Assembly (NCBI GenBank): GCA_951406725.2
Contig: OX597814.1
Span: 49,228,001 to 49,292,000, forward strand
From: Octopus vulgaris
Taxonomy: Eukaryota
Direction of reading: 5' to 3'
DNA: 64,000 nt
The notes below the pieces were generated by a model. The model did no database searches. It worked only from the letters and a program-made list of their open reading frames with translations, and had not been told where the DNA came from. Numbering within the stretch: the first letter of the stretch is position 1; every line of letters begins with the position of its first letter. The translations under genes and the position numbers were made by a program. Positions 638-51,549 of this stretch are shown one piece after another.

Positions 638-1025
638 GGCATGGTTGTGTGGTTAAAAGGTTCATTTCACATCAACTTGGTTTCATGTTCAACCTTACTG
701 TATATCACCTTGAGCAAATGACTTTTTCTATCACCCCTGATCTAGCAAAGCCTTGTGAGTGGATTTGGTAGACAGAAACTGAAAGAAGTCTTGCACACAC
801 ACACACAATTATGTGTGTCTCTGTGTTTGTTCCCCACCACGACCACTTGACAACTGCTGTTTGTTTATGTTCCAATAACTTAGTGGCTCAGCAAAGGAGG
901 CTGATAGAACAAGTATCAGGCTTAAGAAAAAAAAGTACTGATGTTGATTTGTTCAAATAAATCCTTCAAGGCAGTGCTCCAACATGGCTGTAGTCCAAAG
1001 ACTGAAACAAGTAAGAAGTAAAAGG
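638..1025 (+). mobile_element. SINE family A, diverged copy
   Basis: Colinear with 7507-7912. Confidence 0.85.
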
Positions 1026-1444
1026 AAAAAAGTTCTAGATCATATCTTCTGCTCTATTGAAAAATATTTTCCAATATTTACTAGTTCTGGTCGCAATTCT
1101 GATTTCTTTGAGTCTCTTTTGAAGTTGCTTTTCGATTACCATTAATTGAAAAGAGACTTCTGTTGTTCACGACTTTCAACTGAAGGCTCACCAAATAACG
1201 GCAATATTTCTGTCAAGAATTGCAACCAAATGTGAAAAACCAATGGAAACTTAGATTCAAACAGATCAATTGCCATCACCACCACATAAGCGCTACTACC
1301 ACTAACTTTTCTATAATTTTTATATGCTTAGAGCTTTTTCAGTTTCCTATATAGGTCTCAGTTTTCTTCGATCTTTTATCTTTCAGATTTTATTGATATT
1401 ATGAGGAAAGGAAAATTATTTAATTGGGCATATATTCTTTATAT

Positions 1445-1639
1445 GATTAGCTTCAAATTCTGGCACATGACCAGCAATTTTGAGGACCTCAGTTTTCAAC
1501 TGGTACTTACTTTATCAACCCCAAAAGGATGAATAGCAAAGTCAACGTCAGCAGAATTTGAACTCAGAACATAAAGACAGATAAAATGTCACTAAGCATT
1601 TTGCCCAGCATACTAACGATTCTGCCAGCTCACTGCCAT
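1445..1639 (-). mobile_element. SINE family B
   Basis: Reverse complement of family B; flanked by tattctttatat duplication. Confidence 0.82.
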
Positions 1640-4600
1640 TATTCTTTATATAATTATTAATTAGTATGAATTGTAAACTTGCTGATTTGATATTATAATC
1701 TGTCTACATAGAAAACCCAGTCTCATGAGATTTTATTTTGAGCATCCTCTAGTTTTGGTTCTCAGTGGTTTCGCATTTATTTTCATATATATATTTACAT
1801 ACTTCCTAATGAACTTTCCTTCCCACATATCATGTGTTGTGTGTGTGTGTGCGTTTTGTAATTTCTTTGGTTATTAAAAATAGTGACAGTAGAGGTTTAC
1901 ATGGAAGATGCTTAGTTGTGATGTTAAAACCTTTCCAATTTTCACCTCAAGATTCAGATCACCCTTACCTCTGGGTAAATATTCTCTTCCTATCCTATCT
2001 TATAGGAGATGCTGCTATAGATTTAATCTATTTAGCCTCATCATAACTTCTTTTCACTCAAGTAAAACCTCTTGCTTCTCCTCTCCTCCCCCTTTTGATG
2101 GAGAGTAAATGAAACACTACCCATCAGCATTTTCTTTATCCCTTCATACAACTACTTTGCAAATATCAAAGAAAAACTGCTTGATTGTTTTTGCTCATTG
2201 GTTGGGACTGTTTTTTCCAAAGACAGATTTTCTCATGATTTAACTTAGGTCTACAAGTCAAGAACTAGTTGGGTTTATAGAGAAAAGTCTTCATCACCAA
2301 AATCTATTGCATCCAAGAAGTTACATCTAATAGTTGTGTAACCTCAGATCTGTTCTGATTGAGCAGACCTGTTATCAAAAGCCATGATCATAGCATATCT
2401 AAGAATACATTAACCAACATGACTTCTCTTTTTAAAGATGGAACAAGCTATTTGAGGTGGATTTTACTGCTATTTTTAGCATGTTGGGTAAACATGTATA
2501 GGCTCTCTTTTTGGCTTGACATCTGACAAGCTAGAATGCTCTGTGCAGTACTCTTTATCAGCACTACTAGGCCAAAATCTTCAGAATGTGTACATAGTCC
2601 TCAACCCAAAAGTCCTTCAGTAGCGGCTGTGCTGTTCTCTTTTCTATTGTTAGACCAAACCATTTGGAACTTAACTGAGATCATTACTGACACCAACCAA
2701 AATAGACTTAGTCTTCCAAGTGCAAAGTCTCTTGTCTAGTTGTTAGTTTTTAGTCCCTGGTAAACTCTTATTAAACAGATCTTTAACCATAGTCTTTTTT
2801 TTTTTTTTTGGTTTTCATTTTTTTTTTGCATAATATACTCTGGATTTCGTTATCTAATGTGTCCTTCATTTTTGCAGGTGTAATTTCAGGGAGATTTGGT
2901 TGCTATTTCTTGTTGATTGAGTGGCAACATAGAGACTTTTTTGTTGACTTGCAAATCTAGTAATCTGTCTTGGTTCATTTTGTATGAATCAGCACTGATC
3001 CTAAAACCAATAAAATAATGATCTTCTACATACTATGTCCATCATAAAATAACAGTATGTAGAAGTAAGCTAACAAGCTGAGACACCTCCCAAAATAAAT
3101 ATAGAAATGAAAATATTACAGGTCAAAAATATGTGAAAACATGGCTAAGAAATTCACTTTGCAATCACATAGTTCTGGGTTTGATCCTAACACAGCCTTG
3201 GTTGATCAATGCCTTATGGGTAAAATTCAGTTGATAAAATTTGCCAAAGCCTATCATATGCATATCTTTTGTTGATGTATATTGGCACAAGATATACTTT
3301 TCAATGTTTCTAGAGAAGAAACATGAAAGCCAATGATGGCCTTGTATACCAGAATAATGGATGTTAGGTGCATCTGAGCTTAAAATTCTTAAGTTTGTGT
3401 CTTGCCTAAATGCATTCAAATCAAGAAAGACACACAGAGAGGTAGGTAGAAAAAGATTACATGAAATGCTTGGCAATAAGAAAGACACTATATGGAAGTA
3501 GGATTATTTCAGAAGAAAATGGCTGTAAAGCTGGTACAAAAGACTAAGAACTGCATCATATGCAGTACAGTAAGCAACCAAAGTACTACTTACTTTAGTG
3601 CAAAGGAATTTTCTTTGCACTTCGCTATAATCACCATAATAATTTTCAGTATGCTAAGGTTAAGAGTTTATTTTATGGCAATAGTTTTAGGTTTTCATGG
3701 TATTAGGTGTCTTGTAGTATGAAGCAGGAAGCACACACATGTTTAAGTTTATCCTTAATTTGACTCTTTGTAGATAATGTAACGTTGTTAGTGAGTACTT
3801 GTTTAAAAAGACTGGAAGAGCCCTAACAGACTGGGCTGTCTCTAAACCTGTGAAAATGTCAGTCAGTGTTTTGGTGCGTTCTGTTTATGAGAAACCAGTT
3901 TCTAAGGTGGTATACAAGAGATTAGTTACTAGTGTTGCCCTGCTTATCAGATACATTAATAATGTTAAAGTTGAAAGAACCTGCTTTCACTGTGTAGGGT
4001 TGTCTTCAATTGTATAGCCATATTATGAATAAGATAACATTTAATTGTTTTATGTAGTTTTACTTTTTTTACCATTTGAATAGTGAATTTTCTTATGACT
4101 CTCCCCCATCGCACACACGCACAGAGTATATCTGAAGTATTCTCCCAGTCTGTTGTTAATAGTGTATGCCTCCCGGTCATACATAAACCCTGAAATCTCT
4201 CACTGTTACATTTTTACTTCATAATAACATTGCTCTTAAAATCTTCAGACCACCTCCTAAACTTTACCTTTATTTTCCACCAATGCTACTACTATTTTCC
4301 AAGTTAAATGTCAATGCACCTAACCAAACCTAACCAATTAACCTATTTGTACACCCCAGTGCGTATCTTGTTGATTGTATGATGACTTTAGCATGTTTTT
4401 AAATGCTATTTATATGCTTATTAGAAATCCTTCCTAATATATGTTAGAAAATATTTATTTCTATACTTTATTGATCATTTTAGTTGTTTATCAATATAGG
4501 AACTAAAGTGAACTTCTTTTAGACATCTGTTTTGTTTTTAAGAACAGAGGTTTGTTTTTATTTTTACTCTCTTCTTTCTCTGAAGCTTATCACCATCATG

Positions 4601-4701
4601 ACCATTGCCACTATCATCATCATCATCATCATCAACATCAGCAGAAACATTTGCAGCATTACTGTTTTGGTTTAATATACACTTCTCTGTACTGTATTTG
4701 A

Positions 4702-4747
<46 letters not shown>

Positions 4748-4753
4748 TATATA

Positions 4754-5245
4754 CAGAGTGCGGTGAATATATTATCATCTAAATTACACAAAAATGACAT
4801 CTCCTTTTAACAGATATATTTATCAAAATTGGATAAAAAATATCTTCAAATACTAAAGAGTAAATTTATTCAATAAAATCGCCATTGGCTTCAACCACAG
4901 CCTCCAGACGACTTTGGAATATCGTGCAACTCTTCTGGACGGTCTCCTTGTCTAAAGTGGTGAATGCTGCCATAATCCTTGCTTTCAGTTCATCTTCGGT
5001 ATTACAAGGAGTTTTGTAGGTCTCTCGCTTAACTGCCCCACACATAATAATCAAGGAGGTTGCAGTCTGGAGACTTAGGTGGCCAGATGTTAGGGCTGAT
5101 GTGGTCGCAGAAATTGTCAGACAGCCATGACTGGATTTTCCTGCTTGTGTGGCATGGTGCAGAGTCATGTTGCCAGACATAAGATCTTCCAGCAGTCACC
5201 CTCTTGACCTAGGACAGCACTATCTCCTCCAGGCACTTGATGTTG
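4754..5245 (-). mobile_element. Tc1/mariner (DD37D, maT-type) transposon 3' fragment, frameshifted
   Basis: Minus strand WQHDSAPCHT...WPPKSPDCNLLDYYVWG with 37 residues between the last two catalytic Asp, then ...RLEAVVEANGDFIE*; terminus CAGAGTG after TA. Confidence 0.88.
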
Positions 5246-5351
5246 CCTTTCATCCTTTCAGGGTTGATAGAATAATACCAGTTGAGTACAGGGGCTGATG
5301 GAATCGACTTATCCCCTCCCCCAAAATTTCAGGCCTTCTGCCAAAATTTGA

Positions 5352-5409
<58 letters not shown>

Positions 5410-5539
5410 GTTTTCTTTTAGGTAGGGAGCCATAAGATATTTATGGGTCTACAACAACATACTAGTTGAACTCAACTTTTAAGGCCTTGCCTCTATTTAT
5501 ATTGCAGTAGTCATCATATTATTGCCATTACATGTTTGT

Positions 5540-6100
5540 CAAAATCACCAGACATGATAATGCAGTTGTTGTCATTTATTATGGAATAATCAGTATGAAA
5601 GAGGACCTCAGAGAAACATCTTATGCACCTATTAATCCTGAATGTGGTGCATAAGCAGAAATCACAGTTGCTGTTGTGCTACCTAAAGCTAATTCAAGCT
5701 TAATTATTCTGTCACATATCCTGACTATCTCAGTTGCTTTATCCAGTTTTCTGCTAATAATATGCCTGCTCCACCCACTGTTCCTTGTGTATGAAATATC
5801 TGGCAGAAGGTTCACTCCATTCTATGTTTTTGATGCCATACATCAACTAGTAAATAGCATACATCTAGGAGTAGGTGCACAACTAGTAGATGGTGCACAT
5901 CTGCTAGATGACATTTATCTACTCACCTCCATTCTAGTAATTTTATAATCTCTCCAGATAATTTCAATATTGATGATGGTAGCTCTGAATTTTTGCACCT
6001 GACAGGAAGAGGATAGTTCCTGGTGCTGTGTGACTTGTCTATTTTCTGCATCTGAACAGAAAGGAGTTGGTGCAATTCTCTGGTATGATTGACATGAGTT
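5540..6100 (-). mobile_element. Degraded RTE-type LINE, AP-endonuclease region
   Basis: RICDRIIKLELALGSTTATVISAYAPHSGL resembles the APE domain SAYAP motif; boundaries approximate. Confidence 0.7.
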
Positions 6101-6869
6101 CACACATGGCTAGATTTTCACACCTGGATACCCCTCTACCATACACATCACTACCATTTTAAGCACTAGATATACAGCAGTCAGGTATTTTTTTGTATTT
6201 AATTTGTAACTGTCATGATTTCATATGGTTTGTATTTGGCAAGGCACCCTTTCTATGAATGCCTGCTTTACACCATGGTCAGGGTGCCTTTGCTAATGCC
6301 ACTGGTATTAGAGAGGGGCTTTTTCAGAACTAAAGACTTTCCCCTCCCTCCCCTCCACCCACCCCTCTCTCTTTCTCAATCAGTTTTTAATTTAGAGTTT
6401 CAGCTCACCTAGATTTCACAGCAACTTCCTGTGTCCATGTCTACCTCTATGGCTGGCTTTGTCTAAATTCCAAGCTGGGTTAACTTCATTATAACTATAT
6501 AGGCAACACCTCTTCTTTATGTTGGGTATAATACATAGTTTATTAGATAGTCTTCACAGGTGGCAGCTTGCAGATGGGCAAAGCGTTTTCTCAGGCAGAG
6601 ACAGGGATGTTTAGTTGGGAACTGAGATGACCTTCATAACATTTTGTAAGGGGTCAAAAAGAAGGGCATTTACCTACTAACTATTGTACATGCATGTGCA
6701 TATGTACAGACTTATGTATTTATATACACTAGTATTATTAACTGCATTTGTATATATATGTGTAATATATATATGCATGCGCACACAGATGTACATAAAT
6801 ATAGATAGATAGGAGAATAAATAGACAGATATACAGGTATACTTAGGAAGAGGAAGAGTCAAAAGTACA

Positions 6870-7360
6870 AGCCATGCACATATTTTGTAATGTAATGTGA
6901 AATGTTCTGGATTGCAAAGAGAGAATTAAGATGCTGTTGGGAGAGATAGATGGAATAATAGCAGTGCACTTGCCTTAGTTATGCCAAAATGAAAGAATCA
7001 TGGAAATGCTACCTGAAGAGTTGGTTGAATGAAGAGAATGTATGGGAGAATTGTGATTCTGCTCCCAACAGATTTAACAGTGAGCAGCTACTGAGGTTGA
7101 AAAGCTTTGCAGTGAAAATGTGACGAGAGAAATGAAGGCTGAAAAAGCAGCTGGAGCACCTGGGTAGTTGCTGTGATACTGAGAATATTTCGAGAAGTAG
7201 GTCATGCACTAATCATAAATATATGGTCAATGAACGAGTACTGAGAGATGTTATACCCAACAATTTGTTGTGTCTGATCCTGAAGGGCCTGTTAACAAGA
7301 GACAGGTGATAGGATTTGAATTAAAAATGCACAGATCTGAAACATATATTGCAAGGCATC
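6870..7360 (+). mobile_element. Highly degraded LINE fragment upstream of the RT domain
   Basis: Broken frame MKAEKAAGAPG..ILRIFREVG..VIPN resembles the KAPGP.G..EMLK region of RTE ORFs. Confidence 0.45.
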
Positions 7361-7506
7361 TCCTGCAATCCCACAATACTCAATCATTTTGTCCATATCC
7401 TGTCCTGGATAGGCTCTTTATCAACCCCAAAAGGAAGAAAGGCAAATTAATTCAAGTGTGATCTGAACTCAAAGGGTGTAGCTCAATATATATAGATATA
7501 TATATT

Positions 7507-7912
7507 GGAGTGGCTGTGTGGTAAGTAGCTTGTTTACCAACCACATGGTTCCGGGTTCAGTCCCACTGCGTGGCATCTTGGGCAAGTGTCTTCTGCTATA
7601 GCCTCAGGCCGACCAATGCCTTGTGAGTGGATTTGGTAGACAGAAACTGAAAGAAGCCTGTCGTATATATGTATATATATATATATGTATGTGTGTGTGT
7701 TTGTGTCTGTGTTTGTTCCCCTAGCATTGCTTGACAACTGATGCTGGTGTGTTTACGCCCCTGTCACTTAGCGGTTCGGCAAAAAGAGACCGATAGAATG
7801 AGTACTGGGCTTACAAAAAGAATAAGTCCCGGGGTCGAGTTGCTCGACTAAAGGCGGTGCTCCAGCATGGCCGCAGTCAAATGACTGAAACAAGTAAAAG
7901 AGTAAAAGAGAG
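7507..7912 (+). mobile_element. tRNA-derived SINE family A, full-length young copy
   Basis: A box TGGCTGTGTGGT, B box GGTTCAGTCCC, internal (TA/TG)n, (AGTAAAAG)n tail; several copies in window. Confidence 0.9.
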
Positions 7913-8081
7913 TATATGTATGTATATGTGTGTATGTAGGTATATAATTTAATATTTTGCATAGGCATAGCAATACTAATAACTTGGTGTTAGAACACAA
8001 TATACATGTTTCAATATGCCAGTATATATATATTACATCTCTCTCTCCCTTTCTCTCTTTCTTTTTCTCTCTGTCTCCCTC

Positions 8082-8146
<65 letters not shown>

Positions 8147-8181
8147 GTATATATATATGTATGTGTGTGTGTATATATATA

Positions 8182-8572
8182 TAATTGTTATCGCCATATT
8201 AATATGGCATTCTTATAGAAAACAAGTGGATGTATTCCACTGAAACTAGATAAATATAAGCCTTCGAACAGAGACGTCAGTGGCGACACCTGCGGGGTCT
8301 GACTGCGCTACATTGACAAGGGGCAATACCCCGAAACGTGTCTGTAGCTGTCGGACTGGCAGTGTGAAGCGGCTGACCTCCCTTGTTCAAAGGTTATAAT
8401 GGATACAGATCGTGTATCAATAGCTATCTTAAGGCGGTGGCCTCATGGAGCTGACCAGCGGCAGCGTTTATTCTTATATCTATAAGAATGCCATATTAAT
8501 ATGGCGATAACAATTAATTTCCAGTAAACGCTGTCGTAATCTCTTTTATAGAGACTTAGTAATTTTAATATT
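8182..8572 (+). mobile_element. Penelope-like element remnant (pseudo-LTR with inverted 5' segment)
   Basis: 38-bp inverted repeat (8182-8219 / 8479-8516), internal hammerhead, both ends in (TA)n tracts. Confidence 0.7.
8297..8356 (+). ncRNA. Type I minimal hammerhead ribozyme motif (U3:A8 core variant)
   Basis: Stem I GCTACA/TGTAGC extended by GTCTGAC/GTCGGAC; core TTGACAA; stem II GGGG-CAATA-CCCC; GAAA; loop CGTG; TC cleavage site. Confidence 0.8.
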
Positions 8573-8603
<31 letters not shown>

Positions 8604-8855
8604 TTTGGGGACAGTGCAAGCCAACAGTTGTTCTGTGTGTTCACCATCTGTTTGTATTGACGCTTCCAGCACAAATGCCAAGCAGTACAGCATGTTGTTT
8701 CCAAATTTCTGGCAGAGTGAATTGTAGCATGGTTCTGTCTTTTTCACAGACAGTGCCCAACTGATCCTACTATACTGTGTCGATAAAATCAAAAACAAAC
8801 AAGGCACATGCATGAAATTAAATATGTAAAATGGCGGCAATTTACCCGTTGCACA

Positions 8856-8898
<43 letters not shown>

Positions 8899-8901
<3 letters not shown>

Positions 8902-9697
8902 TCAGTAAAAGCAATTAAGATTCAAGCGAGTTCCAATGAATTCACATGAATGCGGTACTTAACTTAGATGCACCAGAAATCTATATGGTATTAACCATAA
9001 AATAATGTGGGGTGATTATAAACAAGAAAAAAGCAACAAGAATGGATTAGTTTTTCAGTACAATTGTTTCATACGAAGAACAGCTTTATTAAAAGCTGCA
9101 AATGTTGCAGCAAATACAAGTGTCCCGTACTCATCAGCCAAAACACATATGAGTTTTCCAAACATCCTAGGGGGTGAGGCTACCCTCATGAAGTATCGAA
9201 GAGAGTTCTATAAAAAGCAAATTTAGATTGTAAGCAGACTTCCAAAGTTCTCTAATGATGCACAGTTTTATAAAAGGTTTTAAAAAAGCTTGTTAGCTTT
9301 ACAGAAAATGTAAATCCATCCATAATAATGTAGGTGTAATTTCCGGAGATATGAGGAGATATTTCATACTCAGAGACGATGAATTTATCCATAATAAAGT
9401 AGGTATAATTTCCTGATATATGAGAAAATGCTGATCACATTTCTGTTCATTTCACATAATTCCAACATAGTAGTTTTGTGAAATGAACAGAAATGTGATC
9501 AGCATCTTCTCATATATCAGGAAATTATACCTACTTTATTATGGATAAATTCATTGTCTCTGAGTATGAAATATCTCCTCATATCTCCGGAAATTACACC
9601 TACATTATTATGGATGGATTTACATTTTCTGTGAAGCTAACAAGCTTTTTTAAAACCTTTTATAAAACTGTGCATCATTAGAGAACTTTGGAAGTCT
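8899..9697 (-). mobile_element. Penelope-like element remnant with 221-bp fold-back
   Basis: Starts at a (TA)n tract, hammerhead at 9050-9146, near-perfect inverted arms 9236-9456 / 9477-9697. Confidence 0.7.
9050..9146 (-). ncRNA. Type I hammerhead ribozyme motif with extended stem II
   Basis: Minus strand: GTGTTTTGG-CTGATGA-GTACG...CGTAT-GAAA-CAATTG (palindrome)-TA-CTGAAAAAC; stem I relies partly on G-U pairs. Confidence 0.72.
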
Positions 9698-10265
9698 CAG
9701 TGAGGCCTAATGTTCGAAGGTCGGGCTTCACCACCTCATCCCAGGTCTTCCTGGGTCTACCTCTTACACAGGTTCCCTCAACCACTAGGGTGTGGCAATT
9801 TTTCACACAGCTATCCTCATCTATTCTTGCCACATGACCATACCAGTGCAGTCTTTCTTGCACATTCCATCTGATGCTTCTTAGGTCCAACTTTTCTCTC
9901 AAGGTACTTACACTCTGTCGAGTATGAACACTGACATTACACATCCATCGGAGCATACTGGCTTCATTTCTTGCGAGCTTACACATATCCTCAGCAGTCA
10001 CAGCCCATTTTTCACTGCCATGTAGCATGGCTGTTTGTACACATGTGTCATACAGTCTACCTTTTATTCTGAGTGAGGGGCCCTTTGTCACCAGCAGAGG
10101 TAAGAGCTCTCTGAACTTTGCCCAGGCTATTCTTATTCTGGCAGCTACACTTTCAGTGCACCCGCCCCCACTACTGACTTGGTCATGTAGGTAACAGAAG
10201 CAATCAATTACTTTTAGTTTTTCTCCCTGGAATGTGGCAGTTGTTCTCTGCACATTTTCAGTGTT
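9698..10265 (-). mobile_element. RTE-clade LINE fragment, RT C-terminal region
   Basis: ORF 9678-10253: ARIRIAWAKFRELLPLL...LHGSEKW...WYGHVAR...RGRPRKTWDEVV; homologous to 48290-48809. Confidence 0.92.
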
Positions 10266-10766
10266 TATATCTTTTCATATCTTCATTTGTATTTTATGCG
10301 TAACATTCACCTGAATTTTTGTCATTCATATTAGTTTCCATTTGTCTCTTAATCATCTTAAGTTGGAATATATAATGATAGATAAAGTTGACCTGAAGAT
10401 TGGGGTTGTATATAAGGGGAGGTTCTGTAAGAGACTGTGTGTCTCAGGAACATAGTATACAACCTCATGAAACACATGTAGTCATAAACTTTGAACACAA
10501 ATAGTAAGTATTAAATATAATATTGTATGACATGGTGGAATTTGTATTCTGATTTGTTAAATTTTATGGGGATTTCTGCCTCTAATTGATACTTTGATAT
10601 ATATATATATTGAGAGAGATAGATAGGTATATAGGTATATAGTTGAGGTTATAAGAGAAGGATATAATTAATAAATATCCTGGAAACAGCTGTAAGACCA
10701 TCTATCTATAAATGTTCTAATATCTACACACCCTTGGTTTCTTTATCTCATTACGCAAAAAATTCT

Positions 10767-10770
<4 letters not shown>
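10266..10770 (+). mobile_element. Penelope-like pseudo-LTR remnants (probably two)
   Basis: Intact hammerhead at 10384-10492 and a degenerate one at about 10647-10699, each segment ending in (TA)n; boundaries approximate. Confidence 0.55.
10384..10492 (+). ncRNA. Type I hammerhead ribozyme motif with extended stem II
   Basis: TGAC-CTGAAGA-T-TGGGGTTGTATA...TATACAACCTCA-T-GAAA-CACATG-TA-GTCA; outer AAAGTT/AACTTT pairing. Confidence 0.78.
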
Positions 10771-10854
<84 letters not shown>

Positions 10855-10865
10855 TAGATAGATAA

Positions 10866-11106
10866 GAAAGTTGGTTTGTGAAAGCACGTGGTTGAATATA
10901 TGAAAATAGTAAAAAGTGAAAAAACTACAGAAGGCTTAAAGGTTAAAAATATATATATATTTGAGTCAATATGTCTGAAGAATATTAAAAATTTTTTTAA
11001 TATTGTAAGAAAAAAAGAAAAAAAAATTTAATATTCTTCAGACATATTGACTCAAAAATATATATTTTTTAACCTTTAAGCCTTCTGTAGTTTTTTCACT
11101 TTTTAC

Positions 11107-11112
<6 letters not shown>
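10866..11112. mobile_element. Fold-back insertion in (TA)n, Penelope-like architecture
   Basis: About 87-bp inverted arms (about 10903-10989 / 11027-11112) between two long (TA)n tracts; no ribozyme seen. Confidence 0.55.
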
Positions 11113-11181
<69 letters not shown>

Positions 11182-11236
11182 CACACACACACACACACAC
11201 ATATATACACACACACACACATACACATATATATAA

Positions 11237-12300
11237 TACTAGCAATGCATCCTAATGTTGCCCAAGTGTTATGACCTACAGCCACATTGTATTATTGATT
11301 CCTTTCTTATGGGCAGAATCAGCACAGCTGATATATAGTGAAGTGGATTACTGGCATAATGGAAGTTATTGTATGTTTAAAAGTGAAGGTGAATGGGGTA
11401 CAGTTTGCATGGATTTGCATCACAAACTATGTATCGTTTCATTGTATAAAAGTAGATTAATACAATCAAATCGTGTTTTCAAAATTTTAATTTTCCCCCG
11501 TCATGTCTAACTTTTTCAGTTTTGATTTTTTATCCATATAGAAAAAATACAGAGATTACGAACCTGGGAAATATATATTTTTTTTTTAAAGTTTAATTTT
11601 TATTAAAGAAACACTCATTGCTCCTTCCTCCACCTCACCCACCCATCACCCACCTGCTTTCAAAGAGCTAAAACCTCCCAATGTTTCACTTTCATCTGAT
11701 GTTTCATGCATGTATAGAATTGTACTGAAATAACAGATGTAAAAATACCAAACCACCACCAGAAAACCCAACATGCTAGAAACAACAGGTAAATGACATT
11801 ATTTCTAAAAAAACTTCCCTGCTTTCCAGAAAGCTAAAAGTGAAACATTGGGAGTTTGTAACTTTTTGAAAGTGGTGAGATGATGGGTGGATGTTTGGGA
11901 AGGAGATTTTAGTGTTTCTTTAAGAAAAAAGGAAGAAGAAAATTCTTAAAAATTCATACTCTCTGTTTTGTTTTTGTTTTTTTTCTGTGGATTACCAAGA
12001 AAGAAATGAAGAAATTGGGGTGAGGAGGAAGAAAATTCAAATATTGAGAATGCATTTTTTGAGCAAAATCCTAATCTCCTGTATTGAAAACATAGGAATC
12101 GGAAGAAATTTAGGGAAAGAATAAGGTGGGTGTGCAAATGTCACCTCGGACATGCTAGAAACAACAGGTAAAGGACAGGATTTCTGGGAAAACTTCCTTT
12201 TAAGTTTGTATCAAAGATCAGGTTTTTGAAATATGCTCATCACAAACACAAATTACAGAATAGAAAAAGGTGATTTCAATTGGATTTCAGCTGTAATTCT
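11237..12300. mobile_element. Degraded composite repeat, possibly Helitron/Helentron-related
   Basis: TACTAGCA terminus next to a TA tract; inverted arms 11603-11692 / 11837-11923; direct repeat acatgctagaaacaacaggtaaa at 11771 and 12150. Confidence 0.4.
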
Positions 12301-12543
12301 GTGTGTGTGTGTGTGTGTGTGTATGTGTGTGCATGCATGCGTGTGTGTGTGCCAAAGGAAATTATTTTATGGCATTCTTTTGCTTGAATAAGCAAAGTTG
12401 TCAACTCAGTCATATGGTCGATTATATGGGATCATATGATTGTTCGTTAATTTTCATAAAAATTTTTTATTTCTTTATGCTTCGAAGAGAAGAGAAAGTA
12501 AAAAGGCAACATTTGCTTTGAAGTGAGAGCAGAAAATGAAAGA

Positions 12544-12578
<35 letters not shown>

Positions 12579-13405
12579 AGAGTGAAGGTGTCATGTATGT
12601 GTAAGTGGTACTCACTCGCTCTCTCTCTCTCTCTCTTTCCCACACACACATTATCTTTCATACACGCATACATAAATGCATATGCATACATCATTTTTTG
12701 TATGTATGTGTGCATGTGAGAGAGAGAGAGTGAGTGACTGTATTTCCTCATAACATACAGAGAAATGGATGTCTTAATGAATTTTTTTTGGTTGTGTCTT
12801 CTATACAATATTTATGCGTGCATTTTCATAAATGTTTGTCTGAGTAGAATTCTATGCATGCATGGAACATCAGATGACAGTGAAACATTAGAAGCAAATT
12901 GAAATATTGACCAAAAAGGACTTCAAAATTGTGCAATCCGACCCATGTTTCTGAGGTTATTTTAGTAGTAGAAAAGAGTTGTTGTGCCAAAAACATAATT
13001 TACTTGGTAGCCTTTATATATATAAATAGATGATAAGCAGCTTTCTTCATTATAGTACAGATGTGACTAATTCAGAGAAACATTACTTTTATTATTTACA
13101 CATCGTTACTCTCGTAATGCAACACTTTGTAATTTTGATTCAGATTGGAAGTGTGAAACCTGGTCATTGAAAGTGTGAAACCTGTTCGTTGTAGAGCAGT
13201 GTCTTTCAAATAACTATAGCTGGTTGCTGTGATAATGCAGGAAATATGTAAATGAAAATAAAGTTTATTTGGTAGCTGAAAGATTATTGAATCTTCTGAC
13301 ACCCCATATGTCAAAATCGGCAACTCAGTTTTCGAATGCATATGGAACATATGTACACAATACACACAAACTCTCTTTTATATTTATATTTATAGTTATA
13401 TATAT

Positions 13406-13725
13406 ATACACAACTATGAGAGAGAATCCACTTTGTGGACGCCCTTACGCTAGATATAGATCCGCAAAGGGACTCAACCACTAAGAATTGTTCTCAAGAA
13501 ATAATTCAGCAAGCCAATAATTATTTCTTGAGAACAATTCTTAGTGGTTGAGTCCCTTTGCGGATCTATATCTAGCGTAAGAGCGTCCACATGGTGGATT
13601 CTCTCTCATAGTTGTGTATTAATAATATTTACTGAATCTCAGTCTTTATACACTGGGCCACTGGTTTTTAAATTGATGTTATTAAATTAATATCCAATTT
13701 TTTCACCCTCTTTTTGACATTATAT
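13406..13725. mobile_element. Fold-back insertion in TA tract, Penelope-like architecture
   Basis: 101-bp inverted arms 13406-13506 / 13519-13619, 12-nt loop, then about 100 bp of unique tail ending in TATATAT. Confidence 0.6.
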
Positions 13726-13727
13726 AT

Positions 13728-13986
13728 CATCATCATCATCATCATCATCATCGTTTAGCATCCGCTTTCCATGCTAGCATGGGTTGGACGGTTCAACTGG
13801 GGTCTGGGAAGCCAGAAGGCTGCACCAGGTCCAGTCTGATCTGGCAATGTTTCTACGGCTGGATGCCCTTCCTAACGCCAACCACTCCATGAGTGTAGAG
13901 GGTGCTTTTTACGTGCCAGACGAGTCTGGCAAACGGCCACGATCGGATGGTGCTTTTTATGTGCCACCTGCACAAGGGCCAGGCAA
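13728..13986 (-). mobile_element. RTE LINE 3' UTR fragment with (GAT)n tail
   Basis: Same sequence as the 3' end of the RT-bearing copy at 47848-48809. Confidence 0.88.
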
Positions 13987-20443: not shown

Positions 20444-21122
20444 AATAAAACAGAACTGCTAGTATTGTTCCTCATTTTGACCGAACATCATTTAATCATA
20501 GACATGCATGCACTTTCAAGCTTCAGACAATATTCTTGTTTTCAAATGCAGTGAGCTCAGTGGCAACAATCAAATACTTAACAGTGACCTATAGATCTAG
20601 TCTGCTTGATATTCCATTTTTAAATCAGTGTGTTTGATTGTACAAGAGGCAATGTGATAATCAAACCATATAGCATCTAATTTACTGTACAACTTAATTT
20701 CTATGTCTGGAGACTTTGATAACTGCAGCAAAAGCTGATAAGATATCTACTTCATTCATGTATTGTAGATGTACATTTTCTCATAATTTATTGAAAGTTT
20801 ACAACTTAGCACTGCAGAAGAGCAATTATCATACAGGTGATTTTTACTATATATCTGATAAAAATGTGCTTTTGTGGATTAGATGGTTGAGAATGTGATT
20901 TTAGAAGATCGTTGTGTTAGTGTTAAGATGTATTCTGAATAAATTCTGCTATTTGTAAAGCTTGACATTTTGTAGCAGAGCACTGGTGTTTGGGAGTGGT
21001 ATATTATGGAACTTGCTTTAGCAATCTCAGAATGATAAATAGTAAGGTTGCTCCTTGCAGGGTTTGAATTTAGAAAGCAGAGGGTTGAAATTAAATGAGG
21101 CAGTTAGTCTGAGACTCTATTG

Positions 21123-21269
21123 TTTACATCAATATAAACTTGCTATCCTTAAATTAATAATAAATGGCTTATTTATCTTAAATCTTCATCATCATCAAAT
21201 GATGATGATTATGATTTGAGATAAATTAACCATTTATTATTAAGGATAGCAAATTTATATTGGAGTAAA
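21123..21269. repeat. AT-rich palindrome centred on (CAT)n/(ATG)n
   Basis: About 70-bp imperfect inverted arms with a 3-nt loop. Confidence 0.85.
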
Positions 21270-23568
21270 AAAAAATAAGTGAACATTTTTAAATGCATTT
21301 TATGCCAATGTTGTTATCAGTGAGTAATTAATTCTACTAATAGTAGGAATAACCAGTATTATGTTCGTGTCATTCCCAAGGACATTAAATGATCTAAGAG
21401 AAGGGAAAGTCTTCTAACTAGAGAGGACAACATGGTTATTGACTCCTTTTTATTTCAACAACAAAAGCAATATTAATCATTAACTAATATTTTCTTTCTT
21501 CTGCACCCCCCACACATACTACAAGCACACACACAAACATGCTACATGCACATGCACACACACACACACGCATGCATGCACATACATGCACGTTTATTTT
21601 CAATTAGTTTTTTTAATGCTCTATGCATTAAATAAGTTAACACTAACTCCCCTAATTATTTTAACTAACTTATATAATCAACTTAGCATTAATTGCTTTA
21701 AAGAAATTTAATATTATTATTAAAATTTTAATCTAATTATTTGATGTGTTCTTAATTAATCTTCAGTTTCAAGATGTGGTGCTACATGTAACTGCGCTTC
21801 CTCTCCTCTTCAACCTTTGAACTTTTTTACTTTTCAAAAGAAATAACTGAAAAGTCATTCAAATTTGCTCATTAAAAAGTTGTTAAATTTTGTTTTTCTT
21901 TTAAACCGCTAAATTTTGGGGTTTATTTTTACCATATATCTCTTCATCTATCTATAATTAACTGTTTTATGTCAGCAGTATAGTTAGTGGGTTAGAATAC
22001 CAACCCAAAGGTCATAATTTCAAATTCAGTCACCAGCTGTATTATTCTATTTACTTTCATCTACCAACCTGAATATAGACATCATCGCTCCTCCACATCA
22101 AAGACAAGTGATGGTAATTCCAGAAAATGTCTGAATTGGCAAAATCACTGAACCTTTACCAAAATAGAAATGTTTGATGTAAAAATATTGGAAAAGAAAC
22201 TAAAAGAAAACAGTGTGTGTATGTGTCTAACTATATGCATGATATATGTATGTGTGGGTTAAAAATCAGGCTTTGCTATTAAATGTTTTGACTGACGTTT
22301 TATTTTATGATTTTAGCAAATTTATTTCAAGTACATTTTACATTTTCACAAATTCCAAACTTTTCAGACATTACAAAACTTATATATTATTATTTAAAAA
22401 ATTGACAAAAACTTATTGTTGTTTGTACAATACTTAACCAACTGAAACATTACAACATGACTTTAATATTTAGTTTTAAGTAACAATAGCCATTGCTGGG
22501 TGATTTGTTAGGATTGTCAGCTGGCTTGTAGTAGAATCAGTTACATTGATTCTGCTGTATAAAGCTTTGATAAAATCTTTTGCTGGCCCAGTCAATCTGA
22601 CCATAAGCTGTACAATAAGAGGGTACAGTTCACAGCTGTAACAAGCCAACTATCTAACTAACCAATGTTTCTTATCTAACAGTACTGATCTCAAGTCTTC
22701 CCAAGAGTGAAGATTTTTGCTTGTTGTTTCTTTGCAAGATGAGTGATGTCACTCAAACATTTAACACAGTAAAGTTTTAGATAAGTTTTGGTAAATTTTG
22801 CCTTTGAATGGATTTCAAAAACTGGTGATACACATAGAAATCTTAATTGAAAATCCTTTGGTTGGGAGAATTAAACCAGAGGGACTAGGCTAGATGTTAC
22901 TCCCTGACTGAGTTGGGAAGTTGCTGATAAAAAAAAAATTGCATTTAATAATTTGTGCTTATAATATTAGTACAATACTGTCTTCAGCTTGATGATCAAT
23001 ACTCATTGCTTCAGTGTTGATTTTAAGGTATTTTGAATTTATTTCCTTCAATGAGTAAGTGATGCAATGAACCAATGAATGAGTTTCTATACAGTTGTCC
23101 AACTTGCTGGAAAAAGAAACATCTCCTTTAAATCACATCTTATTGTATTAATTAGAAAAGGATTCATTTGATGATGTAATCTCTGGTATATTAAAAGATG
23201 AGATGGTTAAAGCCTTTGTTCATATGTCTCCTGCATCAGAATAGACAAATGGGTTAAACAACTATAATATAAGTAATACATTTGATTTATCATGAAATAA
23301 ATTAATGACGGAAAATGATAACTAGATGACTATAACTTTCACATTGGTTTGTTCTCTTACCAACAATATGATGACGATGTGGTCTTGTGATTAAGTAGCA
23401 ACTATTACTAATGCTTTCATTCATTGCTGATTGCTACAAGTTCATATCTTTCAAATGGACTTTTAAAAGTGCTATAAAAACATGACAATATTTGTTACAT
23501 TTAAAAAACCCTGAGATTTTGTCACATGTATTTGAATGTGCAGGGTATATTCATGCATGCATACACAT

Positions 23569-29900: not shown

Positions 29901-32900
29901 ATATTATAGGTCTAATGCTTTTGATCTTAAGTCTACTCAATGAGAGCTGACTTGGAGCTGAACAACACCAATCATTTGCCTACTACATCGTGTCAGGTTC
30001 ACTCCCACTGTATGGTACCTTGGGCAAGTATCCGCTACTACAGCCCCAGGCTGTAGTAAAGAGCCAACAAGGTTCCCTTATATATATAAAAAAGAAATTT
30101 ATTTAAATAAAATAAATTCACTGGCATCCTTGAATTTGCAAGGAGCCCTCTTCCAAGGTAGCAAAATAATCTGGTTCTGCCTTACTAAATTTCTCTCAAT
30201 GGCCCAAAATATAGCTGGAATGAAAATAGTTTGCAAAGAATATTTACAGCTTTTATTAACAAGGCAAAATAAAGTGTTTAATTGTGTCAAATAATGACTA
30301 CCTATCATCTGCAAATCATGTGCTAACCTTACAGCTAAAATGCTATGAAAATCTATTGTTTTCTAAATGAAATTCCACACAACACTACCCTATCATCTAT
30401 TGTTTTTGACTTAGCAATGTTCTCACATAATCTACACATAATGTCATTTCCCTTACAATCATATCATTCTACATATCCCTGACTATGACCATACTATAAT
30501 TATTTGAATTAAAGTCAGGTCTTCCCCTAAACTAGGCAATAAATGAAAGCATTCAGTTCAGTGGCAGCTCGTAGATAAAATTATTTGGGGTGCTGCTTCA
30601 GAAAATTTTTAGCTGTCTTTAGCTGGGTTTTTTTTGCGTAAAATGAAACAAACATATAAAAAGAAAATTTATACATAAATTTTACCACCATGAAATCCCC
30701 CTTGTTTTTCAAAAATCTCCCCTAAATCATAAAATAAGGGTGGGGAGAAATGTGCCCTATTTTTCAAATCCTGGCAGTAACACTGAACCTGGAAGCAGGA
30801 TAATAATCTAATTCTACACTTTATCCCATTCAAGAATATAAACATGTTTTTAAGCACAACACACGCGGAGTCAAAAAAGAAACACTACCTTTCACTGGAA
30901 CACCGAGATCAGCACTGTCGTTCAAGCAGTGCTCTCTCTCCCTAGCATGAAGCTTCCTATCTCAGATACATGAGCATGCACACAACAGCCAAACACCACG
31001 TCACTGGAACTGTGAAGCACACAGTTCTATACAAGGATTTTTGTATTTTTATAAATTAGGGGATGGCTACTGACATTAAGCTTAAGGATTATATATAAAG
31101 AAAGAATTAAAGAAGAAAGGACTCGTTATATTGAATGTCATCAATAATATTGAGTGGAAATAGCAAGTGCTGCAGTTCTGCAGTGCCTATACACGAGCCG
31201 CCACTGATTCTGTTGTATCCTTTACATTACAAATATCTAAACTCATTGGTATAGATTTTGGACAAAATAAGATTTTAAAACTGATAGCCTGCAAATAATA
31301 TTTTGGTTCTCTCTAAACCTGCAATTCTTCTACCACAAATAACAAATCTAAAACACTCCTATCTGTATCTCAGTCAGCTACATCTAACCACATCACATCT
31401 ATAGACCTTCTTCACAGTGAAACACACCAGTAATCAGTACTCCAGTTCACATCATCCTTGCAACTACACATCTAACAGACCATAAACATTTTAATGTATA
31501 TGTAACATTTCTGAATACTTTTCAAAACCAGCCTACAATTGCTCTCTTCCCTTTAAACCAAAAAATAAGTACTAATTCAAACCATGATGTAAAATACAAA
31601 TGCACTTTGTATTCTATCAACATTTTCCATAGTCAAGACACTTGACTGTCAATGTTCCAGAACATTTAATCATAAATTGGTAAGGTGGCTTAATCCAGCT
31701 GTGATTCTTTATATAATGTAGTCATAAAATTAGTCTAAAATTATCAGCAAAAGTATATCTCCACAAGTAACAAAACTCCTCGTTATTCACATCATCTCTG
31801 CTAAAGCTAACAACATTTATTTTCCATGCCACATTCAACACTGCATTTAAAAGAAGAGAAAAAGAAATGATATTCTTTCAAGGTTCAAGGTATTAGTTTG
31901 TAAATGTAACTCTACTGGTAACTCCATATTATTTCAAAAACATTGGATAAAGACTTTGTAAACTGTTATCTGTCTAATCCTAAAAACGTGTTTATATTCA
32001 TGCTGTTTTTCATTATGCTTTTTTTTTTATGTGATTCTCTTATCAGACTATTGGGATATTGGTTACACATTATAACTTGCTATCCCTTCCATAAACTATT
32101 CACACCTGTTAATTATGTCTTGAAAGTATTTTTTTCTTTACGAATTAGATAGGAATGTGACTATTCCATAAAAAAATGATACAATGAAAAATATTTAAAG
32201 ATAATTATGAGTCTATTTTGATACTTGTCTGTTTGTGTTCTTTGCTATAAAGGACTACATACCAAGCATTATAAAGTTTAAGATGAGCCAAATTCACAAT
32301 CTGGTTTTAATACTAGTGTTTAACAACTTTATTCCAATTACATCACTAAAACCCTTGGGAAAAGTCGGAGTATTGCTACTTACTCATTTCCCTTGCACTA
32401 ATAAACATCCATGCCAGAGTAAGAAACAAATAAAGCTATGTGTTAGAAGAAGGTATTTCCTATAATATTCAGATAGACACTAGAATAGCTCTACATTGGA
32501 ATGGTATTCTTGTAAACCATAAGTGAAAGTAGAGACTAATGTTTTAAGGTTGTGTTCTTTGTTGGACAAAGAAGAAAAGCAATTTAATTTTATTTCTCCA
32601 GTACAAGGCCTCAACTAGAAGGTTAATCTCTGCTTTAGCTCAGCACACACCAACTAACGTCTCTTCTATTTTTACATCCAATCATGGAATTGTCTCATGT
32701 ATGGTAATATTCTTTTCTACTCTAGGCACAAAGCCCGAAATTTTGGGGGAAGGGGCCAGTCGATTAGATCAACCTCAGTATGCAACTGGTACTTAATTTA
32801 TTGATCCCGAAAGGATGAAAGGCAAAGTCAACCTCGGTGGAATTTGAACTCAGAACATAAAGACAGATGAAATACTGCTAAGCATTTTGCCCAATGTGCT

Positions 32901-35900
32901 AACGTTTCTGTCAGCTCACTTCTTTATGTATGGTAATATTGTCTCATCTATAATGCCATTATGCTGCCTCATGTAATTATATTCATATTAAGTTTTTGCA
33001 TTAGGTTGTGGCAGTTGGTGCAAATGGTAACAAATTGGACAAGATATTTATGCTATCTAGTCTAGTCCTTCATAGGTACTTGTTCAAATTATGTTGAAAT
33101 TGACTTTACTTTTTGTATGTCAGTATTAATCATAAGTATTCAACTGATTCTTCATATGGAATTGTACCTACACCTGATTGTATTTATAGTTAGGTGGGAT
33201 AAGCATGAAGAGTTAAGTATTTTGATTAGGGCACAATGCAGCATGATGGCCAAATATGAACTGTTGGCCTTTTGAAGAGCCTACAGTTCTTCGTTTAATA
33301 CTCTTTACTCTTTCTCTTTACTCTTTTACTTGTTTCAGTCATTTGACTGTGGCCATGCTGAAGCACCACCTTTAGTCGAGCAAATCGACCCCGAGTCTTA
33401 TTCTTTGTAAGCCCAGTACTTATTCTATCGGTCTCTTTTGCCGAACCGCTAAGTGACGGGGACGTAAACACACCAGCATCGGTTGTCAAGCAATGCTAGG
33501 GGACAAACACAAATACACACACACACATATTTATATTTATATACATATATACGACAGGCTTCTTTCAGTTTCCGTCTACCAAATCCACTCACAAGGCATT
33601 GGTCGGCCCGGGGCTATAGTAGATACTTGCCCAAGATGCCACGCAGTGGGACTGAACCTGGAACCATGTGGTTGGTTAGCAAGCTACTTACCACACAGCC
33701 ACTCCTACGCCTATAATATATAAAAGGTAGAGAAACCAAATATAAATTTCATAATGTGAGAGTGAACCTGCTTTGTTAATAATTATTCCTAATTAGCTTT
33801 TTAATACTAACTACATTAGGTAGTATAGTCCTAGATACACTGTATATAAATAATGATGGGGATAGTCACAACTAGAATTCTTTTGGTCATAGTTGCTTGA
33901 TTACGGCTGAGCTGGAGCTAAACAACACAAAGTGTAAAATAGCCTAATCAAAACTAACCAGTGAAACAAATTGAATTTGGACTTAACTTTAGACATAGAT
34001 AAATGAAAAATTTAACATTTTTTCATGGAGTTCATACATTCTAGTTTGGTGTAACTAATTTGTCGTACTAGCATGAAGGAATTGATTTATTCAGTAGAGT
34101 ACTTGTCTTTAAAACTAAATAACATTCTTAACTCTAACAACTAATCTTAATACTTGTAGTGGAACCTATCTATATCAGTCAGGACAATTAGAACCTGGAG
34201 AGTTGTGGCTCCAATAGTATGGTTAGAATCATTACTGTTTGGTCAGTACCCCAGCCCATTAAGTAAATCAAGCATTCATTGTACTTTTATATTAACCCTG
34301 ATATCATTATTTTAACATCTGGTAAAATACACTACCTTTTTCCTTTTTTGGTTAAATTTGAAAGTAATGAAGAATTTAGCTGAATAACATAGTCATTGTT
34401 AAGCTGGTGTTTAGGACATATTTTAACATGAAATTTCTGATATATTTCAATTTGAAAAGCAAAGTAAAATTTGGCAGGAGAGAACTTAGAACCAAAAATA
34501 ATAAAACTTAATTACTCTATTATTTAAACCAATTATTCTTTCTACAACTTTATGCTTTATTTTCACATCCACTACTGCTGTAATTTATAAAATGATAGCT
34601 GGCTAAATCAACAGGATGTTGACATACAGGCCAAAAGTCTAGAGTTTGTATCCCATCATCAGCACTGTGGTGTGTTCATAATGAAGACACTTAATTGTCA
34701 TTGATCTAGTTATTTATTTGTTGCTACAAACTGAATAGCATTAAACAGGTATACATGGATACACAACCTGGTCCTTAAGGTTATCTTCAATGCTATAAAG
34801 AACCAAATTGATCTCAACTACAGTGAAAAAACACCACTGAAAGTACCAACTAAAGATTTCATTACCTTTGTCACGCTCAGGTCAGTGGATCCATTTCAAG
34901 AAGAAGAAGAACAACAAACTTTTTGTGAGTGATGAAAAGTGGAATGGCTATTGGGAGGTGACTACAGATTTACCAGGGTGCCAGGGACTCTTTCCCATCC
35001 CAGTCACAAAAAAAAAATGGACATTTTAATGTGATGTGAAGGAAAGAAAGTTGTGAATCTAGTCAAGTTAACGGTTCCTCATTAAGATAAAACATGGACA
35101 CCACTCAGGCTCAAAAGATTGACTGTTATGTAAACCTCCTCAAGGAATGTGAAGACGCAGGCTGGAAAGCGGAGCATTTTCCAATCGAAGTTGGATGTAG
35201 AGGGTTTGTTTGACACAGTGTGAGACGACTTTTGTTATCGTTAGGCCTAACTCATCGTAAACATCACCATGACCAAACTACAGTGGAGAAGGCTAGCCAC
35301 TGGATTTGGTTAAAAGGAGACAATAAGCAATGGCTAGAAGAATATTGAGCTTTATTCAATAACCAGTTGATCTAGCAAGCAGGGCCTCATATCAGTGAGG
35401 GGGTGGCACATTGATGCTCTTGAGAGGTAGGCCCTGAAATGGTGCGCATTCTCTCCTGATGACCCCATACACTTGCTGGCTTCCGGTATGCAGAGTTCTT
35501 GACTGGTACCACTTACATGTGCAAGTTGTTTGTAAAACATCTTGTTGCTACAAATTGCTGTATGTTAATTCAATGTCAGCTGTCATTGAGCAGATCCATA
35601 ATCATAGGCTTCCCTGGCATGAACATTTCATAGTTTTTCAGACAGAATATATATCCAGGAATTCATTATGCACTATGCTCTGTCCCTCTTTTTTTTCTTT
35701 TTTTTTTTGTGATGGTTGTTGAGGAAGACAAATTTCCTGCAAAATTAGCAATCTCATACATACCTTCAATTGACTTGTTTATTTATAGATAGGGACCATA
35801 GGTAAATAGTTACAGCTCTCTGTAGTAAGTAGTGGCAGCAATTTATAGTTAATCAGTGTTTCATTCACTTACAATAATGATTGTACTCTGTGCTATAAGC

Positions 35901-50900: not shown

Positions 50901-51549
50901 TTTCTTTGTCAAATAAATAAATAAATGCTGTTAAAAAGCAAAATTACTGCTTAGTAAAGAAAAGTACTGAACTTTGAAGATTCCACTGTCTGTACCATTT
51001 TCCTCCAACCCACAATTATTTTACGAATCACACTTTTAATAATCTTTTATGTAGGTTTGGCTGAACTTGGGACTATGTGTGATATGAAAAGAAACTGTGC
51101 TATTATTCAGGATAATGGTCTTGGTTCAGCTTATACTATTGCCCATGAGTTGGGGCACTTGTAAGTATTGGCTTTCAATTCAGCTTACATTATTAAAAAT
51201 CATGAACAGGTAACTATTCTTTTAAAGTAAGGAAATATATGTTGTTATTATTATTATTATTATTGATTTTTGTCTGTTAGATACATGTGATTAAGTTTAT
51301 AAAACAATTTAAAATTTCCATGTAACTAATCTTATTTCTTATTTGTGTGTGGGTGGGGAGGGTGACTTAAGCAGAAAAACAGAATTCAAAAATATGAATA
51401 TATATATATTTTTAGTTAATCAGCAGAAGTTACAAATTGACTGAAAGGTTGAGAGTTTCATGCATTGGCACTTATCACAAAACCTTCAGTATGGAACTCT
51501 CAGCCCTTGAGTTACTTTGTAACTTCTGCCAATTAAAGTGTATATGTGT

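Follow-up and report, generated by a model that had tools for sequence, protein, structure and literature searches.

Penelope-like elements (PLEs) can show an inverted 5'-truncated copy and, optionally, a 30-40-bp tail at one end (PMC8557442). In the Hydra clade hammerheads are universal and nearly all families reside in (TA)n; one member is from Octopus, and no pLTR is listed for Hydra-1_Obim (PMC8557442). The Octopus Naiad PLEs (Naiad_Obim, Naiad_Ovul, Naiad_Omin) also prefer (TA)n and exhibit inverted copies and tails, and have no canonical hammerhead (PMC8557442). Minimal hammerheads have been described in the pseudo-LTRs of metazoan PLEs, including a U3-A8 variant in Schistosoma Cercyon (Cervera and de la Pena 2014, PMC4209133). 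The Poseidon element PAc of Anolis carolinensis nicks AT-rich DNA and extends both strands; two RT start sites produce the tail, and mainly uncut RNA serves as substrate (Frangieh et al. 2024, PMC11167929). Animal non-LTR retrozymes, proposed to be PLE derivatives, are non-coding, carry a type I hammerhead and are defined by tandem ribozyme units of 150-450 bp (PMC7229834; 10.64898/2026.07.22.740005). In O. vulgaris PLEs account for 6.83% (PMC13282606), and a 2026 repeat library of this species holds 190 PLE families.

The window analysed here is a 64-kb stretch of O. vulgaris DNA in which six short elements (E1, E2, E3, E3b, E4 and E5) crowd a TA-rich stretch at 8182-13722. The region 8000-13800 contains 10 of the 19 (TA)≥6 tracts of the window (binomial 1.6e-6, the region being picked post hoc). 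Along the locus the order is TA-E1-TA-insert-TA-E2...E3-TA-E3b-TA-E4-TA, starting at 8086-8183, where a (TA)n/(TG)n tract precedes E1 (TRF). As originally predicted the elements are mutually unlike, since none of the 15 pairs exceeds shuffled controls. Their description as fold-back and hammerhead-bearing applies to E1 and E2 only: an inverted arm is absent from E3 and E3b, a complete hammerhead from E4 and E5. We consider the six pieces most probably to be 5'-truncated 3' ends of several unrelated PLE families, successively inserted into one (TA)n region.

Two further repeats are found between the elements. An insertion at 8604-8858 (minus strand) lies between two TA tracts and is unrelated to the elements. 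Its TA|CAGTGTG end is visible in the sequence, and it is likely one terminus of a DNA transposon of the Tc1/mariner type; a search with its peptide gave no significant match. At 9696-10284 (minus strand) a very abundant repeat, presumably an RTE-type LINE, has left a fragment that contains a frame of 198 aa and is broken at 9696. Additional old hairpins are present elsewhere in the window.

E1 (8182-8571, plus strand) consists of an inverted copy (8182-8219), a body with HHR1, the direct copy of the arm (8479-8516) and a one-sided extension of ~55 nt reaching (TA)n. The arms are complementary at 38/38 positions and separated by 259 nt. HHR1 (8307-8348, plus strand, predicted cut after 8342) represents a minimal type I hammerhead whose core has U3-A8, the same covariation as in PMC4209133. 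The 3' end of PAc contains an ORF start, whereas a candidate ORF start at the 3' end of E1 (one stop read as X) matched no real relative; it was rejected, giving only repetitive lectin/WD40 summed matches (n=3).

The main arm of E2 (8899-9459, minus strand), a member of a multi-copy family, adjoins (TA)20 at 8859-8898 with its 3' end. The inverted arm of 224 bp (9474-9697, plus strand) has its loose end at 9696 and overlaps the abundant repeat by 2 nt at the junction. Between 9236-9459 and 9474-9697 220/224 positions are complementary, with a spacer of 14 nt. HHR2 (9053-9143, minus strand, predicted cut after 9059) is a type I hammerhead motif with a helix II region of 60 nt. Other E2 copies replace its G.U pair in helix I at 9139 by A-U (79-88% of depth). 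Upstream of its ribozyme E2 continues for 320 nt that hold no recognisable endonuclease end, and E2 relatives on contigs of public runs reach at least as far. The exact HHR2 pattern had no match in metagenome contigs or in viral contigs.

E3 (10390-10596, plus strand) is a low-copy element extending from HHR3 to (TA)7 as seen in contigs of public runs; the sequence upstream of it (10285-10389) is weakly repeated. HHR3 (10389-10484, plus strand, predicted cut after 10480) is a type I motif whose branched helix II of 69 nt has U.U at its base. Reading this U.U as decay was dropped, because the Hydra table in PMC8557442 shows U.U as a family trait. In other E3 copies (100% of depth, 4/4 runs) the letter at 10476 perfects the helix III palindrome. 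The high-copy element E3b (10612-10766, plus strand) is located between two TA tracts and holds the decayed HHR4 (~10645-10700), in which helix II, GAAAC, the palindromic loop and the cleavage triplet are intact and the 5' core is eroded. HHR4 was spotted by eye and fails both hammerhead descriptors. Other E3b copies improve the pairing at 10700 (93-97% of depth), and the exact HHR4 pattern had no match in metagenome contigs.

E4 (10865-11111) and E5 (13406-13722) are near-palindromes. TA tracts flank E4 on both sides; its arms (~10903-10998 and 11018-11111) span ~96 bp, differ by 3 substitutions and one indel and are separated by 19 nt. The shorter arm ends 38 nt short of the end of the longer one and meets the TA tract directly, leaving 38 nt of extension on the left side alone. 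CTGAAGA occurs in both arms; it was rejected as a ribozyme, having no second core half and facing the palindrome centre. In E5 the arms (13406-13506 and 13519-13619) are complementary at 98/101 positions with a spacer of 12 nt, TA is found on the left only and ~100 nt of further sequence follow on the right. All four predicted pairs of arms are thereby recovered, with lengths of 38, 224, ~96 and 101 bp instead of 38, 221, ~87 and 101 bp.

Three complete hammerheads and a degenerate one had been predicted as well. A relaxed descriptor indeed returned three exact-core motifs (HHR1-HHR3) in the whole 64 kb, all within 2.2 kb of this locus, compared to a mean of 0.17 per window (maximum 1) and none within 8182-13725 in 30 block shuffles. 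Under a stricter scan only HHR1 and HHR2 remained, compared to 0.075 per window for 40 shuffles. Perfect palindromes in helix III are confined to HHR2 and HHR4; HHR1 and HHR3, as they occur in the window, are each one pair off. All four motifs aim at a TA tract with cut sites 73-231 nt upstream of it. The covariance-model check turned out negative: Rfam hammerhead models matched none of HHR1-HHR4, and Rfam gave no hammerhead, twister or HDV-like match, only miRNA-type hairpins below the gathering score.

Copy number was surveyed on contigs of four public runs for the region 8899-10760, covering E2, E3 and E3b, i.e. three of the six elements. All three are multi-copy in 4/4 runs according to the related contigs, contrary to the single-copy state that would have spoken against transposable families. 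Per run, 13-35 contigs carry a differing letter inside HHR2, 5-11 inside HHR3 and at least 111-126 beside HHR4; the variant letters derive from 40 of 189 variant rows. The summed depth of E2 (run X1) drops from 3' to 5', from 188,000-361,000 over 8962-9150 to 30,000-45,000 over 9151-9276 and ~1,000-11,000 per bin 5' of 9276. For E3 it drops from 6,200 to 970 in the same direction. Summed contig depth is noisy (67,000 at 9104 versus 415,000 at 9139) and does not equal copy number.

The anatomy of the elements resembles that of PLEs in several respects. A minimal type I hammerhead in sense orientation near the 3' end is found in E1, E2 and E3 and, decayed, in E3b. E1 and E2 have an inverted 5'-truncated copy at the 5' end with the ribozyme setting the polarity; E4 and E5 fit this trait by geometry only. 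E2, E3 and E3b are dispersed, multi-copy and 5'-truncated. Together with the better-pairing copies at three ribozyme sites this supports the prediction that a TA hotspot has gathered several PLE-type families that are distinct from one another. The one-sided extensions measure 38 nt in E4, ~55 nt in E1 and ~100 nt in E5 and would be candidates for the PLE tail. Direct copies, as in the partial tandem (pseudo-LTR) arrangement that is optional in truncated copies, are not seen for any element in the window. As in PMC4209133 the hammerheads are type I, have a short palindromic helix III and are mostly single motifs, which in that study come from truncated PLEs. Unlike those, two of them exhibit a long branched helix II, and four different families lie inside 2.4 kb.

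The closest resemblance of E2, E3 and E3b is to the TA-targeting Hydra clade (e.g. Hydra-1_Obim, Hydra-1_Crog, Penelope-13_HM), which is known from Octopus. The Hydra table shows the CTGANGA-T...T-GAA pattern of HHR3. The clade also has (TA)n insertion and a hammerhead near the 3' end in common with E1-E3, a trait not exclusive to Hydra. The 3' end and ribozyme of Hydra-1_Obim, however, show no sequence match to these elements, nor do the ends of Naiad_Obim and Naiad_Ovul. Naiad PLEs resemble E4 and E5 in being devoid of a canonical hammerhead; the Naiad 3' ends compared are unlike E4 or E5 by eye. Six sequence motifs taken from the window gave no match in the Craig 2021 supplement, a weak test (exact, one strand each).

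Based on published PLE biochemistry, such a locus could arise as follows. A GIY-YIG endonuclease would nick AT-rich DNA and the RT would extend both target strands, beginning at one of two adjacent sites near the RNA 3' end. Joining of the two short cDNAs via their truncated ends would then generate an inverted 5' copy plus a one-sided tail, such as the 38 nt of E4 and the ~55 nt of E1. Lying 70-230 nt from the 3' end, the hammerhead would be carried along as well, and since whole motifs were copied the templates would have been uncut. With each insertion a TA tract would be divided in two, and its halves would regrow by slippage into new targets, which may account for the observed chain of elements and tracts. 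The single hammerhead copies are probably inert here because minimal hammerheads need a partner or protein to cut.

Several observations count against the PLE reading. The elements contain no coding frame, neither RT nor GIY-YIG, when all frames are read by eye; the assignment is therefore architectural, as already stated in the original prediction. No Rfam hammerhead match is found, and E4 and E5 have no complete hammerhead. Three of the four inversions are near-symmetric, which is unexpected if two cDNAs truncate independently, and a literature search on symmetric fold-back PLE insertions found no relevant paper among those listed. The extensions of E1 and E5 exceed the published 30-40 bp, and the helix II regions of HHR2 and HHR3 are longer than those in the Hydra rows (10-24 nt).

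Some or all of the families may instead be non-autonomous, SINE-like hammerhead elements (solo retrozyme-like) that use PLE enzymes and have no coding parent, which we regard as unlikely. It would agree with the missing coding sequence and with the proposed descent of retrozymes from PLEs. Moreover, E2 depth is 3- to 8-fold lower just 5' of HHR2 in 4/4 runs, and among the matches listed three E3 contigs have alignments that begin at 10390, where HHR3 has its 5' edge. The depth drop may, however, stem from window-private letters, and one contig of 379 nt runs 163 nt past its E3-aligned part, which together with the upstream reach of the E2 relatives is expected of a longer truncated element. 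With retrozymes the elements share the non-coding state, type I hammerheads and a scale of 150-450 bp. Tandem ribozyme-bearing units are absent from the window, all elements being single, so that "retrozyme-like" in the defined sense is not supported. Quite improbable is a related scenario in which single-unit, non-autonomous hammerhead elements with a long branched helix II ride on Hydra-type enzymes and the symmetric palindromes arise because two RTs halt at one fixed 5' end of the RNA, which for E4 and E5 would be the ribozyme cut. If true, both of these elements would be a genomic record of PLE hammerhead cleavage in vivo and of cut-RNA retrotransposition, which would matter all the more because the in vivo role of PLE hammerheads is open (PMC8557442, PMC11167929).

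It seems highly doubtful that E4 and E5, and the palindrome of E2, are PLE-unrelated, either as fold-backs from host repair or replication in unstable TA or as MITE-like elements. The spacers of merely 12-19 nt, the lack of a ribozyme in E4 and E5 and the old hairpins mentioned above would suit this origin. The E2 arms also share letters absent from the E2 family (9493/9440 and 9624/9309), as if one arm had been copied from the other, but two cDNAs from a single source copy would have the same effect. The shorter arm of E4 stops early at the TA tract like a PLE tail, and none of the four fold-backs has the inverted repeats at both true termini that, with a target duplication, define a MITE or TIR DNA transposon: E1, E2 and E4 overrun the arm one-sidedly, while E5, with TA on one side only, is a less clear case. 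That the palindromes result from misassembly and the motifs from chance is hardly credible, for even though no contig spans the locus and TA tracts are hard to assemble, in E2, E4 and E5 the two arms differ from each other by 2-4% (not one folded-back read), motif counts exceed the shuffles and other copies pair the ribozymes better.

Returning to the favoured interpretation as PLE 3' ends, each feature has already been published for PLEs, so that we most likely deal with an ordinary case and not with a new system. The elements likely represent additional PLE families, set apart from the ends of Naiad_Obim, Naiad_Ovul and Hydra-1_Obim only. If so, the locus is a compact example of TA-targeting PLEs piling up and renewing their own targets, and it contributes candidate families and hammerhead variants with a long helix for annotation. 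The unusual details are the helix II inserts of 60-69 nt and the near-symmetric palindromes.

The cluster at 8182-13725 is best read as ordinary debris of Penelope-like elements (PLEs) in a TA hotspot; the observation is real and partly multi-copy. The window is rich in AT and dense in repeats, and 10 of its 19 (TA)≥6 tracts fall in the cluster. Its common SINE and LINE repeats look like those of octopus, on which the comparison with work on Octopus PLEs depends. Six short elements (E1-E5, including E3b) occupy 38% of this region and are unrelated in sequence, since none of the 15 pairwise similarities exceeds the shuffled range. From left to right, (TA)n is followed by E1 (8182-8571, +), (TA)/(TG)n, a 255-bp insert, (TA)20 and E2 (8899-9459, -) with its inverted arm (9474-9697). 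Thereafter come a broken LINE-like fragment (9696-10284, -), E3 (10390-10596, +), (TA)7, E3b (10612-10766, +), (TA)n, E4 (10865-11111) and (TA)35. E5 (13406-13722) follows after 2.2 kb of other sequence.

The insert at 8604-8858, lying between TA tracts, is presumably a Tc1/mariner end with a short transposase-like N-terminal frame; Pfam and peptide searches gave no confirmation of this identity. Its end resembles that of 4754-5240 (TA followed by CAGAGTG) beside (TA)24, a likely Tc1/mariner remnant (transposase-like C-terminal frame 4866-5195, no transposase match by Pfam). Pfam searches of the window frames gave two domain matches right of the cluster, ADAMTS_CR_2 (E 2.9e-6, passing the cut-off) and Reprolysin (E 0.021, failing it). 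The frames concerned, 40598-40888 and 53360-53701 on the + strand, are probably exons of a metalloprotease gene of ADAMTS type.

Scanning both strands of the 64 kb with a relaxed type I descriptor yields three hammerhead motifs whose core is exact, HHR1 (in E1), HHR2 (E2) and HHR3 (E3), all inside 8307-10484. Shuffled controls gave 0.17 motifs per window and none in the cluster region (30 shuffles). A stricter descriptor recovers two of the three, HHR3 being missed because of a U.U pair. With one core mismatch permitted, two further weak matches appear at 11982 and 33734, which were treated as chance. A fourth, decayed motif (HHR4, about 10645-10700, in E3b) was identified by eye. The motif counts of the original prediction thus stand, while its pairing of ribozyme with fold-back narrows to E1 and E2. 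Rfam hammerhead models match none of HHR1-4, which we infer to reflect their minimal form. Folding to minimum energy reproduces helices I and II for HHR1 and HHR3 but fails to reproduce helix I of HHR2; folding z-scores are -2.9, -2.6, -0.9 and -2.2 for HHR1-4.

Contigs from four of 24 public runs were aligned to 8899-10760, a stretch with three of the six elements (E2, E3 and E3b); no contig spans the whole locus. All three elements are multi-copy in all four runs. The number of contigs per run with a letter unlike that of the window is 13-35 within HHR2, 5-11 within HHR3 and 111-126 next to HHR4. Three differences improve ribozyme pairing: at 9139 other copies convert a G.U of HHR2 helix I to A-U (79-88% of depth), at 10476 they turn helix III of HHR3 into a perfect palindrome, ACACGTGT (100% of depth in 4/4 runs), and at 10700 they add a possible HHR4 helix I pair (93-97%). 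Differences at 10484-10486 alter the 3' strand of HHR3 helix I. Of the 189 variants, 40 were listed, and none of these 40 lies at a core position. With polarity taken from the ribozyme, summed contig depth is lower on the 5' side in E2, E3 and E3b, but as it is no copy number and swings sixfold within HHR2, this gradient is suggestive only. Other copies of the LINE-like family have a different continuation before 9696, hence the fragment has lost its 3' part where it joins E2. The interval between this fragment and HHR3 (10285-10389) is AT-rich and weakly repeated, and the alignments of related E3 contigs do not cross it. With the majority letter at 9139, the sense strand of 9138-9143 reads TTTTAG right before the HHR2 core and resembles a splice acceptor. 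In Penelope of D. virilis, helix I is where an intron ends (PMC4209133). Contig depth has no exact drop at 9138-9143, so this reading is only a lead.

The elements behave like PLE remnants, and PLE membership, judged from architecture, is likely. PMC8557442 describes PLEs with inverted 5'-truncated copies, 30-40-bp tails and a microsatellite bias, and a hammerhead-bearing clade, Hydra, which sits almost always in (TA)n and has an O. bimaculoides member. HHR3 has the Hydra core pattern, whereas helix II measures 60 nt in HHR2 and 69 nt in HHR3 versus 10-24 nt in the Hydra rows. Minimal PLE hammerheads include a U3-A8 variant, and single motifs are derived from truncated PLEs; for a single minimal motif that source gives no cleavage (PMC4209133). 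Retrozymes, the other origin originally proposed, are tandem by definition (PMC7229834; 10.64898/2026.07.22.740005), and tandem retrozyme-type units are absent from the window, so the retrozyme part of that proposal lacks support in the strict sense. O. vulgaris has a PLE content of 6.83% in 190 families, 31 of them recently active (PMC13282606), and the present families may already be in that library (Zenodo). No published description of them, or of octopus hammerheads with long helix II, was found in a search outside which lay subscription papers and bioRxiv supplements.

The inverted arms predicted for E1, E2, E4 and E5 proved real on recheck. They are complementary at 38/38 positions in E1 and match at 220/224 in E2 and 98/101 in E5; those of E4 (about 96 bp) differ by 3 substitutions and one indel. 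Two letters common to both E2 arms (9493/9440, 9624/9309) are absent from 86-99% of family depth, hence the two arms share a source molecule or have been homogenised. Assuming initially identical arms and a rate of 0.0036 per million years (quoted in PMC13282606), arm divergence dates E2 to ~2.5 and E5 to ~4 million years.

The PLE protein of the anole, assayed in vitro, nicks AT-rich DNA and extends both strands, with uncut RNA as its main substrate; RT begins at two adjacent internal positions, and the distance between them equals the genomic tail (PMC11167929). By extension, joining two short cDNAs by their truncated ends would leave 3' ends facing outward, one tailed and one tailless, with which E1 (unequal arms) and E4 (38-nt tail) are consistent. 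TA tracts split by insertion may then have regrown, giving a chain of elements and TA tracts. Such joining leaves the near-symmetry of three of the four inversions unexplained. The cause would be either a shared RNA end or structure at which both RTs halt, or snap-back of a single cDNA; the latter by itself, however, would not halt at the tail boundary, whereas E4 does.

Upstream of the ribozyme, the E2 family sequence holds an internal duplication (69-bp period, ~80% identical, 9302-9429, mirrored at 9504-9631). Five older inverted repeats of 71-81% identity, free of hammerhead motifs, lie in the window at 21120-21272, 51416-51536, 37060-37522, 11597-11929 and 59533-59612. That at 51416-51536 is flanked by TA tracts, as E4 is.
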